From positions 1-37,974 of IMG/VR virus record IMGVR_UViG_2778261505_000008: a stretch of DNA of 37,974 nucleotides. One strand, given 5' to 3'. The notes beneath the pieces are model-generated. The model had not been told where the DNA came from, made no database searches, and saw only the letters and a program-made list of their open reading frames with translations. The position numbers and the translations under genes are program-made. This stretch comes from a virus (taxonomy: Duplodnaviria; Heunggongvirae; Uroviricota; Caudoviricetes). Positions 16,366 through 18,671 of this stretch are shown piece by piece; position 1 is the stretch's first letter, and every line of letters starts with the position of its first letter.

Positions 16366-16550
16366 ACGCCACAATTCAAACGATACCAGAGCTTCTTATC
16401 CAGACACGAGGCAATCAGACCGAAGTGGCGAGGATGCTTTCCTGCGCAAGAGGAACGGTGCTCAAGTACAACCGAGACAGCAAAGGCGAACGTCACGTAA
16501 TAGTTAACGGCGTCCTGATGGTCAAACAGGGCAAGAGGGGAAGACGATGA
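16362..16550 (+). CDS. ninH: NinH-like protein
   Basis: ORF track 16362..16550 (+). ...TIPELLIQTRGNQTEVARMLSCARGTVLKY... resembles remembered lambda NinH. Confidence 0.7.
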   Translation: MNATIQTIPELLIQTRGNQTEVARMLSCARGTVLKYNRDSKGERHVIVNGVLMVKQGKRGRR

Positions 16551-17065
16551 GCATAAGAGAACTAAACCTCACCAAAGAACAGCACGATTGGCTGAATGGC
16601 TGGCTTGAACTGTGGGGCGCATGGGTTTATTCAGGTCGTCTGGAAAAGCGCATGAGCAGCGTAATAGCGAAGTTCATGGAGAGCGTAGAGCCGGGAAGAG
16701 TTATGACAAGGCCAATGTGTAATGATGATGATGGAATGTTGATTTCTCAGGTCGTCGATTCCGTCATGTGCATTGACAAGAAAGCCTTTGGCATCCTCCT
16801 CAGCTACTACGCTCATGGTTCATCTAAGCGAGCAATTGCATCCTACTATCACGCGACTGCAAAGCCACGCAAGATGTGTGGACGTGGTGGTGAGGGATGG
16901 AGAAAACCTTCACTGGCAACCTGTAGAAATGAAATTGACGACATCCTGAAAGCGTCGTTATTTGTTTTGTACCAACCAATGCAAAATGCTTTCAAAATGC
17001 GTAAACGTGTTGAGAAAGTTAAGCATGTTGCTGTTAAAAGCCTTGACATGCAATTAGCCATTTAG
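16547..17065 (+). CDS. Q: Late antiterminator Q (phage 21/82 type, not lambda type)
   Basis: ORF track 16547..17065 (+). ...LELWGAWVYSG...RPMCNDDDGMLISQVV... matches the Q-antiterminator family signature remembered from E. coli QuuD. Confidence 0.8.
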   Translation: MSIRELNLTKEQHDWLNGWLELWGAWVYSGRLEKRMSSVIAKFMESVEPGRVMTRPMCNDDDGMLISQVVDSVMCIDKKAFGILLSYYAHGSSKRAIASYYHATAKPRKMCGRGGEGWRKPSLATCRNEIDDILKASLFVLYQPMQNAFKMRKRVEKVKHVAVKSLDMQLAI

Positions 17066-17072
17066 CCATAAT
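17043..17072 (+). promoter_or_regulatory. PR'-like late promoter
   Basis: -35 TTGACA (17043-17048), 18-nt spacer, -10 CATAAT (17067-17072), overlapping the Q 3' end as PR'/qut does in lambdoid phages. Confidence 0.5.
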
Positions 17073-17082
17073 TAGAGGGTAA

Positions 17083-17126
17083 GCTGCCGTTAGTGACTCT
17101 TAAGTTGCAACGGTGGCTTTTTTTAT
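17083..17126 (+). terminator. tR'-like terminator
   Basis: Imperfect stem gctgccgtt...aacggtggc followed by ttttttta (17118-17125), about 45 nt downstream of the putative promoter. Confidence 0.4.
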
Positions 17127-17128
17127 TT

Positions 17129-17203
17129 GGGTCAGTCGTATAAAGGTCATTACGGAAGGCTGTTAACCTTCTTATCGTGGTTCGAGTCCACGCTGTCCCG
17201 CCA
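17129..17203 (+). tRNA. tRNA-Asn (anticodon GUU) candidate, 75 nt
   Basis: Hand fold: acceptor gggtcag/ctgtccc (one U-U mismatch), anticodon stem gaagg/ccttc with loop CUGUUAA, T-arm cgtgg-TTCGAGT-ccacg, discriminator G, encoded CCA. Confidence 0.6.
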
Positions 17204-17208
17204 AATAT

Positions 17209-17284
17209 GCTGGTTTAGCTCCAATGGTAGAGCAGTCGCCTTGTAAGCGAATGGGTAGCGGTTCAAGTCCGTTAACCAGCACCA
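17209..17284 (+). tRNA. tRNA-Thr (anticodon UGU) candidate, 76 nt
   Basis: Hand fold: perfect 7-bp acceptor gctggtt/aaccagc, D-arm gctc-caatggta-gagc, anticodon loop CUUGUAA, T-arm agcgg-TTCAAGT-ccgtt, discriminator A, encoded CCA. Confidence 0.7.
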
Positions 17285-17372
17285 TAACTGAGCCGTAGCC
17301 ACTGGCTATCATGAATTCATCGGTGATAGTTACGCTGCGGCCTTCTACACATGACCTTCGTGAAAGCGGGTG

Positions 17373-17406
17373 GCAAGAGGTTGCGCTAACAACCTCCTGC
17401 CGTTTT
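17373..17406 (+). terminator. Hairpin downstream of the tRNA pair
   Basis: gcaagaggttg-cgctaa-caacctcctgc: 11-bp stem with one mismatch, then cgtttt. Weak T-run. Confidence 0.3.
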
Positions 17407-17506
17407 GCCCGTGCATATCGGTCACGAACAAATCTGATTACTAAACACAGTAGCCTGGATTTGTTCTATCAGTAATCGACCTTATTCCTAATTAAATAGA
17501 GCAAAT

Positions 17507-17522
17507 CCCCTCAATGAAGGGG
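17507..17522 (+). promoter_or_regulatory. Stem-loop occluding the holin Shine-Dalgarno
   Basis: cccct-caatga-agggg. The 3' arm is the SD (aagggg, 17518-17522) for the holin ATG at 17529. Analogous in position to the lambda S sdi structure. Confidence 0.35.
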
Positions 17523-17528
17523 TAGAGC

Positions 17529-17732
17529 ATGTACCGTATGGACAAAATCAGAGAATGGTTCAGTTACAGCTTCGGAGGACTGACTGCGATGGGTGGCATT
17601 CTCTCCCTGAATGACTGGGCTGTCATCATTGGTATTCTTTGTACTGTCGGCACATTTGGCATCAACTGGTACTACAAGCGCAAAGAGCGCGAGGACAGAT
17701 TGAATGGCAATGTCACCGGCACTACGAAATAG
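17529..17732 (+). CDS. Holin (67 aa) with dual-start motif
   Basis: ORF track 17529..17732 (+). MYRMDK... gives Met1 and Met4 with a basic residue between. Two hydrophobic segments, charged C-tail. Immediately precedes the endolysin. Confidence 0.8.
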
Positions 17733-18207
17733 CGTAATAGCGGCGATAAGTGGCGGGGCTATTGCTATAGCATCTGTGTTAATCACTGGACCAAGTGGTA
17801 ACGATGGTCTGGAAGGTGTCAGCTACATACCATACAAAGATATTGTTGGTGTATGGACTGTATGTCACGGACACACCGGAAAAGACATCATGCTCGGTAA
17901 AACGTATACCGAAGCAGAATGCAAAGCTCTCCTGAACAAAGACCTTGCCACGGTCGCCAGACAAATTAACCCGTACATCAAAGTCGATATACCGGAAACA
18001 ACGCGCGGCGCTCTTTACTCGTTCGTCTACAACGTGGGGGCTGGCAATTTCAGAACATCGACGCTTCTTCGCAAAATCAACCAGGGCGATATCAAGGGCG
18101 CATGTGACCAGCTGCGTCGCTGGACATACGCTGGCGGTAAGCAATGGAAAGGGCTGATGACTCGTCGTGAGATTGAGCGTGAAGTCTGTTTGTGGGGGCA
18201 GCAATGA
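17704..18207 (+). CDS. SAR endolysin (T4-lysozyme family), phage 21 R-like
   Basis: ORF track 17704..18207 (+). Signal-anchor-release helix [21 protein letters not shown], then ...[25 protein letters not shown]... matching remembered P21 R. Confidence 0.9.
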
Positions 18208-18671
18208 GCAGAGTCACCGCGATTATCTCCGCTCTGGTTATTTGCATCATCGTCTGCCTGTCATGGGCTGTTAATCATTACCGTGATAACGCCATCGCCT
18301 ACAAAGAACAGCATGATAAAAAAGTCAGTGAGCTGAAGCAGGCGACCGCCACCATTACTGACATGCAACAACGCCAGCGTGCTGCTGATGCACTCGATGC
18401 TAAATACACGAAGGAGTTAGCTGATGCGAAAGCTGAAAATGATGCTCTTCGGCGCAAGCTTGATAATGGTGGTCGGGTGCTCGTCAAAGGAAAATGCTCT
18501 GTGCCATCCTCAGCCGAAACCTCCAGCGCCTCCGGCATGGGCAATGATGCCACCGTCGAACTCTCTCCAGTTGCTGGACGAAACGTTCTCGGTATCCGGG
18601 ACGGAATTATCCGCGACCAAACAGCACTGAGAACGCTTCAGGAATACATCAGGACGCAATGCCTTCGATGA
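18204..18671 (+). CDS. Rz: i-spanin Rz
   Basis: ATG at 18204 with GGGGG upstream, overlapping the endolysin stop. [31 protein letters not shown]... matches remembered lambda Rz. Confidence 0.9.
18424..18630 (+). CDS. Rz1: o-spanin Rz1 lipoprotein, embedded in Rz in the +1 frame
   Basis: ORF track 18424..18630 (+). [22 protein letters not shown]... has a lipobox (VVGC) and a proline-rich mature region. Confidence 0.85.

Follow-up and report, generated by a model that had tools for sequence, protein, structure and literature searches.

A conserved lambdoid late-operon leader before a dual-start holin gene, with helices that favor opposite strands

What is the structured gap of 244 bp between a tRNA pair and the holin gene in virus record IMGVR_UViG_2778261505_000008 (Caudoviricetes), whose 37,974 nucleotides we analyzed in full and refer to as the window? 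A preliminary description of its sequence had called the gap noncoding and strongly structured, and had proposed that its dyads control lysis timing at the RNA level, with a hairpin over the Shine-Dalgarno (SD) sequence of the holin gene. Our answer, to which we give a probability of roughly three in four, is that the segment is a conserved late-operon leader that precedes lambda-like holin genes and is read on both strands. The description of the gap itself held up well. Each listed dyad was found at the place given for it, and the plus-strand RNA of 17285–17560 folds at a predicted −92.3 kcal/mol, compared with −68.1 ± 4.7 kcal/mol for shuffled sequences (z = −5.1, 0/200). The sole open reading frame (ORF; 54 aa, 17311–17475) has no Pfam match, and its ATG is CTG in phage lambda and in the Salmonella prophage BTP1.

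The gap is a leader block shared with lambda

17286–17524, no strand assigned: lambdoid late-leader block, equivalent to lambda 44945–45181 and to the CUS-3 'bsq3 boundary sequence'

The block is 94.6% identical to lambda, where the shared part stops 4 nt before gene S, and 96.2% identical over 237 bp to the segment annotated in CUS-3 as 'bsq3; boundary sequence'. The longer stretch running from the late promoter pR' through the tRNAs and the leader to the holin gene is 98% identical to BTP1. It belongs to the well-known conserved modules of lambdoid phages, a fact that the preliminary description had overlooked. The Rfam/Infernal scan suggested there returned only the two tRNAs, and no family matched the block in the window, lambda, P22, ES18 or the diverged locus L183 on either strand at E ≤ 1–10.

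Searching viral contigs with patterns in which CTTCGTGAA, TCACGNACAAA or GGATTTGTTC was held constant gave more than 220 loci, including P22-like phages and a far more diverged group. The true hosts of the block-bearing loci, from a genome scan, are Enterobacterales. The block has a mosaic structure, with 17285–17346 alone present in some phages and 17356–17524 in many, and with sharp break points near 17356 (query 62/72) and at query 225–240, the right-hand junction being the loop of the SD hairpin. Across phages with unlike Q genes and unlike holin families, block identity is nevertheless ~95%. Lambda-type blocks also occurred in assemblies of unrelated taxa (L233–L291; Pseudomonas, Bacillus, Flavobacterium, Cohnella, Veillonella and others) on contigs of ~3.5 kb or ~48.4 kb, and these copies almost certainly stem from lambda DNA that was used as a control or spike-in and remained in the assemblies.

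The SD hairpin is kept before dual-start holins

17507–17522, plus strand: SD-sequestering hairpin CCCCT-caatga-AGGGG, at −22 to −7 of the holin ATG at 17529
17529–17732, plus strand: class II holin of 67 aa, Pfam PF16080 (Phage_holin_2_3, HP1 family), 4.4e-21

The hairpin ends 6 nt before the holin ATG, and AGGGG in its 3' arm (17518–17522) is the predicted SD of the first start. The holin begins M-Y-R-M, with ATG codons at 17529 (Met1) and 17538 (Met4) and Arg3 between them, and the MYRM motif was also found in at least 19 related loci. Among the relatives we counted ~50 versions of the hairpin, each with a stem of 4–6 bp over a G-rich SD, loops of 3–14 nt and predicted folds of −6.5 to −10.4 kcal/mol. 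The stems include CCCC/GGGG, CCCCT/AGGGG, CCCCA/TGGGG, CCTCAC/GTGAGG, CCTCAC/GTGGGG and CCTCC/GGAGG. Wherever a holin gene lies directly downstream, the hairpin stands 5–8 nt before the first AUG of a dual start of the type MKM, MYRM, MKKM, MKNM, MFRM, MNRM, MNKM, MIRM, MTRM, MRM or MHKM. The gene at L224:10028–10203 begins MKL (ATG AAG TTG), so that its second start would need to be TTG.

The preliminary description had named covariation of this hairpin in related phages as a test, and the hairpin is indeed kept through many different stems and loops, with compensating changes and at the position equivalent to that in lambda. Its central idea, that the hairpin hides the SD of a dual-start holin, is thus supported, and is at the same time the known lambda mechanism: RNA-level control of lysis timing is an apt term for the hairpin, which is established lambda biology and not a new device.

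Two further candidate elements flank the first start codon. UAGAG at 17523–17527 resembles the UAAG of lambda, and a small hairpin is predicted over 17530–17544, in codons that are constrained anyway. In about nine loci the SD-type hairpin is followed by a different conserved element (TCGCTAATATGCGGCCTGGTAGTCTCATGCC...) and no holin start; the element stands after a CCCC/GGGG hairpin in L185, L189, L211, L126, L162, L178, L191, L193, L200 and L205.

Leader helices show opposite strand preferences

17292–17341, plus strand: long hairpin directly 3' of tRNA-Thr, followed by CCTTCTACAC; candidate read-through stop
17366–17371/17407–17412, plus strand: outer stem enclosing the 12-bp stem, predicted by RNAalifold on this strand
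17372–17383/17390–17401, minus strand: 12-bp stem with a 6-nt loop, kept with entirely different stem sequences in the diverged group
17404–17413/17423–17432, minus strand: helix M1 (UUUGUUCGUG / CACGGGCAAA), predicted by RNAalifold on this strand and present in the minimum free energy (MFE) fold of the antisense RNA
17426–17466, no strand assigned: A:A' hairpin (GAACAAATC / GATTTGTTC), apical part variable
17457–17508, plus strand: helix A':A'' (GGATTTGTTC / GAGCAAATCC), abutting the SD hairpin with a 2-nt overlap; alternative to A:A'

The interleaved repeats of the leader are A (17426–17434) with A' (17458–17466) and B (17436–17442) with B' (17471–17477). A third copy, A'', which the preliminary description did not list, pairs with A' over 13 nt (17457–17469/17496–17508). 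The stem described there as 11 bp long (17373–17400) exists, and is in fact 12 bp with one A·C mismatch. Against shuffled sequences, the stem 17366–17412 (z = −4.3) and the A:A' hairpin (z = −3.5) fold with unusual stability. The hairpin 17292–17341 is specific to the plus strand, on which it has G·U pairs (−25.1 kcal/mol, z = −4.1; minus strand, −16.9 kcal/mol, z = −1.05). Its loop is the palindrome ATGAATTCAT (17311–17320), which consists of a lambda EcoRI site plus flanks; as a conserved element the palindrome fails, being kept in neither lambda nor BTP1.

Helix conservation was tallied over an alignment (A2) of 69 representative homologs, with pair types counted per cell. The outer stem is paired in 99.5% of cells on the plus strand and 76% on the minus strand, with 96 G·U cells, 0 A·C cells and CG/UA/UG covariation, and it is closed further out by TCGTGA/TCACGA (17358–17363/17422–17427). 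The 12-bp stem is paired in 85.7% of cells on the plus strand and 97.2% on the minus strand, with compensatory changes at 11 of its 12 pairs. Its 115 unique variants comprise 1142 Watson-Crick, 172 A·C, 15 G·U and 49 other cells. Mismatches that are A·C on the plus strand are G·U on the minus strand, and by this substitution pattern selection maintains the 12-bp stem on the minus strand, not on the one for which it had been described. Helix M1 leans the same way (99.9% on the minus strand, 74.5% on the plus strand). Helix A':A'' (17457–17466/17499–17508) is paired in 99.9% of cells on the plus strand and 93% on the minus strand, with U·G at five positions (46 cells) and a single A·C cell. RNAalifold on the plus strand independently gives TCGTGA:TCACGA, the outer stem and A':A''. 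The A:A' hairpin has an invariant 7-bp core and group-specific extensions, and covariation speaks neither for nor against it.

The substitution spectrum of the block is strand-symmetric (G>A 16, C>T 15, A>G 14, T>C 12). This rules out mutational strand bias as the source of the A·C excess, so that the strand asymmetry of the helices reflects selection. At 17409 (C/T) and 17411 (G/A), the only states found are those that pair in both the plus-strand outer stem and the minus-strand M1.

Two observations concern variation within the 12-bp stem. Its pair 17376/17397 is a polymorphism hot spot among otherwise near-identical lambda-type blocks: all six combinations of {G,A,T} and {C,A} occur, of which G/A and T/C pair on neither strand. 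In three loci (L151:204–377, L158:4760–4931 and L167:2552–2723) the hairpin equivalent to 17372–17401 is flipped, with loops TTAGCG, TTGACG and TTCGAG in place of CGCTAA, CGTCAA and CTCGAA, and L167 has its arms exchanged as well. Such flips suggest that DNA-level inversion or template switching occurred at the palindrome 17372–17401.

The leader overlaps an annotated antisense RNA

17166–17485, minus strand: STnc6010 homolog, mapped from the BTP1 annotation through the 98%-identical alignment

The minus-strand wobble signature of the 12-bp stem and M1 is independent of, and matches, the annotation of STnc6010, a noncoding RNA (ncRNA) of 320 nt at BTP1 386640–386959 on the minus strand (Canals et al. 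2019, S2 Table, D23580 annotation). Its neighbors in BTP1, all on the plus strand, are Q (386021–386539), tRNA-Asn/tRNA-Thr (386604–386756) and holin S (387004–387207) (Canals et al. 2019). The BTP1 small RNAs (sRNAs) were annotated from RNA-seq, with transcription start sites (TSSs) defined earlier and promoter and terminator regions checked (Canals et al. 2019).

The 98% identity that makes the window sequence an STnc6010 homolog includes the TSS and the −10 region. Carried over to the window, the TSS falls at 17485 (about lambda 45140). It lies 6 nt after the −10 TTTAAT (the reverse complement of 17491–17496, in the loop between A' and A'') and 44 nt upstream of the first ATG of the holin (45 nt in BTP1, which has one extra base). 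Transcription of an antisense ncRNA at this locus, missed by the preliminary description, is predicted for this phage. In no searchable paper did we find the conservation of STnc6010 in lambda, HK97/HK022, P22-like or farther phages, or its strand-specific covariation.

Directly beyond CTTCGTGAA, 125 of 223 related loci carry a minus-strand hairpin followed by TTTTCTTTT. The carriers include HK97/HK022-type, P22-like and diverged phages, and the stems covary (CCAGC, CCCGC, CCCAGC, CCCCGC). Such a terminator would yield an RNA of ~160 nt, and weak Rfam matches to Leu/Trp leaders (terminator-like) on the minus strand of L183 fit it. A canonical minus-strand terminator left of CTTCGTGAA is absent from the window, lambda and BTP1, in which the hairpin 17292–17341 is found instead.

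Minus-strand promoter candidates differ between groups (TTGTCT-17-TATGGT and TTGATA-16-TACACT, with A' in the spacer). In the diverged loci L181–L224, the apical part of A:A' is a conserved perfect palindrome, CGTCTGATCAGACG, that contains a GATC (Dam) site and adjoins one or the other of these promoter-like motifs, the spacer being the invariant GAACAAATCC. On inspection of the sequence, a sigma-54 promoter in the stem TGGCA...TGC was rejected, its spacing being one base short. Two further RNAs were also set aside: for IpeX of DLP12, no similarity to the block exists in the nmpC-essD intergenic region, and the RIL-seq candidate 'E2348C_2757.EST5UTR' (E2348/69 PP10) lies at a different locus.

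The surrounding late region

16547–17065, plus strand: Q antiterminator gene, Pfam PF06530, 1.5e-25
17043–17072, plus strand: pR'-like late promoter TTGACA-18-CATAAT, 11/12 match to consensus, adjoining the end of the Q gene
17082–17124, plus strand: tR'-like intrinsic terminator AGCTGCCGTT...AACGGTGGCT followed by TTTTTTT, read from the sequence
17129–17203, plus strand: tRNA-Asn, from tRNA detection and Rfam
17209–17284, plus strand: tRNA-Thr, from tRNA detection and Rfam
17704–18207, plus strand: endolysin, Pfam PF00959, 1e-45, overlapping the end of the holin gene
18192–18671, plus strand: Rz, Pfam PF03245, 6e-29

The preliminary description had noted that Shiga toxin (Stx) phages carry their toxin genes at this position and that none is present here. 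The site is indeed the Q-to-holin slot, and it holds only the tRNAs, with no toxin gene or credible ORF. In L230:1761–2273, from an Escherichia coli E2348/69 derivative, an HNH endonuclease gene lies between tR' and the same tRNA-Asn/tRNA-Thr pair. The pR'-like segment is shared with the CUS-3 'bsq4', which corresponds to window 17043–17124. The BTP1 copy of the tR'-like terminator is identical, and the P22 equivalent is annotated as t-late. Only ~45 nt separate the predicted pR' start from tR', much as in P22 (TSS 37887, terminator 37917–45), and the spacing is much shorter than in lambda, whose 6S RNA has 194 nt.

The holin scores 75.1 bits against PF16080 (cut-off 28.8), which places it in that family, and the homologous gene of relatives is annotated as a class II holin. 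Its match to the phage 21 holin family PF04971 is weak and below the cut-off (E = 0.001). The first 29 nt of the endolysin ORF (17704–17732) overlap the 3' end of the holin gene, and the endolysin N-terminus (17704–17800) is hydrophobic and resembles a signal-anchor-release (SAR) domain, fitting a partner of the pinholin type.

Proposed mechanism and alternative explanations

Under the proposed reading, Q-modified polymerase from pR' (17043–17072) would read through tR', the tRNAs and the leader hairpins into the holin, endolysin and Rz genes. The 5-bp hairpin at −22 to −7 would then occlude the Met1 SD, AGGGG, and most ribosomes would use Met4. As homology and conservation suggest, the longer product, which has Arg3 in its N-terminal extension, would act as antiholin and the shorter one as holin, as in S107/S105 of lambda and S71/S68 of phage 21, and their ratio would tune the time of lysis. 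Helix A':A'' would stack on the SD hairpin, share C17507–C17508 with it and compete with A:A'; to go by its wobble-preserving variation, it could modulate exposure of the SD. In the lysogen, the hairpin 17292–17341 and possibly the 17366–17412 stem probably stop unmodified polymerases past the tRNAs, since in BTP1 lysogens the same tRNA pair is highly expressed while the lysis genes are low or silent in most cells. On the other strand, the promoter with its −10 at 17491–17496 would start an antisense RNA at ~17485 that folds into M1 and the 12-bp hairpin. This RNA would continue across the tRNA genes in this phage type, like the 320-nt STnc6010, and end at a canonical terminator after ~160 nt in many relatives. 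Its most likely role, the least certain of these steps, is that of a safeguard against read-through late transcripts in the lysogen, with which it would pair or collide.

Several points count against this reading. On the antisense side, STnc6010 is an RNA-seq/differential RNA-seq annotation that stands outside the northern-validated BTP1 sRNAs (Canals et al. 2019), and the searchable literature holds no paper that discusses it. The antisense −35 is poor in the window (TTCATT, 3/6) and absent in lambda, and we found no minus-strand sigma-70 promoter at a position conserved across all groups, the candidates being group-specific. On the sense side, the SD hairpin taken alone is statistically ordinary (z = −1.8, 9/200), so its support comes from conservation. 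UAGAG as a second SD and the downstream intragenic stem-loop are candidates only, and dual-start control of this holin is likewise drawn from homology and conservation. As for the comparative data, A:A' and TCGTGA/TCACGA never vary and so give no covariation evidence. The invariance of the motifs fixed in the search patterns is partly ascertainment, although each is also invariant where it was left free, and the homologs are linked by descent and recombination, so that there are fewer independent events than the cell counts suggest.

The alternative that survives best, which we hold to be a real possibility though short of even odds, is that the upstream hairpins serve mainly as tandem plus-strand terminators or insulators that back up tR', the minus-strand signals being incidental. 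The hairpins 17292–17341 (U-rich tail) and 17372–17401 (GUUUUG) would keep polymerases coming from the tRNA genes in the lysogen from ever reaching the holin gene, and would let polymerase modified by Q pass. High tRNA expression with silent lysis genes in most BTP1 lysogenic cells agrees with this, as do the clear plus-strand specificity of 17292–17341 and the order of GC-rich stems followed by U-containing tails; tandem terminators in the lambda late operon were reportedly described by Luk and Szybalski in 1983. However, neither hairpin was picked up on the plus strand by a scan for consensus terminators, and the mismatches of the 12-bp stem weaken it on that strand specifically. The tail of this stem, GTTTTGCC, has 4 U, short of the at least 5 U in 8 by which a plus-strand intrinsic terminator was called, and the U-tract is lost in the P22-like and divergent groups (TGATCTG, ATCTTG).

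We consider it unlikely that the block is a 'boundary sequence' at the DNA level only, a recombination linker in which the SD hairpin would be the only dyad with a function in RNA. The bsq3 annotation in CUS-3, the ~95% identity maintained despite different Q genes and holin families, and the sharp homology break points (query 62/72 and 225–240) are what such a linker would lead one to expect. Yet the diverged homologs replace most of the linker sequence while the helices stay, with 11 of 12 pairs compensated in the 12-bp stem. Wobble patterns also vary from helix to helix and between the strands, which selection for DNA homology cannot yield, and a minus-strand transcript is annotated in BTP1. 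A role in recombination may exist alongside the RNA functions.

The pseudoknot that the preliminary description built from A:A' and B:B', here taken as an H-type fold acting with the SD hairpin as a lysis-timing switch, is very improbable: both repeat pairs exist in the window and A:A' is kept in all homologs, but B:B' is paired in only 46% of plus-strand cells, much like controls in which the partner was slid by 1–3 columns (31–44%), it is missing from the P22-like and divergent groups, the MFE fold places B within the A:A' hairpin instead, and a 4-nt A'-B' connector across a 9-bp stem appears geometrically implausible.

Significance

The finding on the hairpin as first described matters little: lambda lysis control by an SD-occluding hairpin before a dual-start holin is textbook knowledge, and the holin here is of class II. 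The sole part of possible wider interest is the conserved antisense RNA with its overlapping folds, and the comparative data indicate that the lysis-gene leader of the best-studied phage family also encodes such an RNA. The block of ~170–240 bp before lambdoid holins, that of lambda included, might be a two-strand RNA module with a functional antisense regulator, a proposal that we regard as tentative and somewhat doubtful. The module would combine a structured sense leader with a conserved family of STnc6010-like sRNAs, of ~160 nt and with their own terminator in HK97/HK022/P22-like phages, and the overlapping folds would constrain the same nucleotides. If this were true, the antisense RNA could silence the holin in lysogens, in the manner of an antitoxin, or act in trans on the leaders of superinfecting heteroimmune lambdoid phages. 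Regulation of the holin or of phage-phage exclusion by this RNA would add a layer to the control of lysis and lysogeny.

Comparison with known systems

Dual starts have been described for lambda (S105/S107) and for phage 21 (S21 68/71). The lambda S region is alike in several respects: a leader 94.6% homologous up to the 5' arm of the hairpin; a hairpin at −21 to −7 (−22 to −7 here) with a G-run SD in its 3' arm, known in lambda as the 'sdi' stem-loop; a purine-rich motif between hairpin and first AUG (UAGAG here, UAAG in lambda); and two in-frame starts with a basic residue between them (Met1-Lys2-Met3 in lambda, where S107 is the antiholin and S105 the holin). The lambda GGGGG SD (−12 to −7) is reported to serve Met1, and UAAG to serve Met3. 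The upstream stem-loop limits access to GGGGG and, together with a downstream stem-loop, sets the ratio of antiholin to holin; for the downstream one (+31 to +47) the window has only a candidate counterpart. The two systems differ in holin family (class II PF16080 of 67 aa here, class I of 107 aa in lambda), in the distance between the starts (three codons in MYRM, two in lambda) and in the hairpin itself, which here has a 6-nt loop (caatga, against the 5-nt ttatt) and an extra U:A stem pair.

Phage 21 (S21 71/S21 68) and P22 (gene 13/13') resemble the window in having a class II or small holin that begins Met-x-x-Met and a downstream endolysin whose N-terminus is SAR-type in appearance. P22 also carries the core of this leader, and its hairpin (CCTCAC/GTGAGG) covaries. 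Phage 21, in contrast, shares only window 17285–17346 of the leader, and the match of our holin to its Pfam family is weak.

By analogy only, and with no claim of membership, the locus recalls a type I toxin-antitoxin system of the hok/sok kind, with a membrane-lethal small protein, a structured leader and an antisense RNA from that leader. Unlike in hok/sok, the antisense RNA here would start 44 nt upstream, clear of the holin SD and start codons. Similar in setting are PasA/PasC (EcOnc51/52) of lambdoid prophages in enteropathogenic and enterohemorrhagic E. coli, which are Hfq-bound, run opposite to the late operon immediately upstream of the holin and lysozyme genes and end at an intrinsic terminator. 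In Stx-type prophages, however, they are flanked by an esterase gene and a different holin, and homology was rejected, the niche and strand logic being alike and the sequences showing no similarity to the block. A further counterpart is STnc6010 of BTP1, which shares locus, strand and neighbors (Q, tRNA-Asn, tRNA-Thr and an MYRM holin) with the antisense RNA predicted here and is 98% identical to it in sequence.

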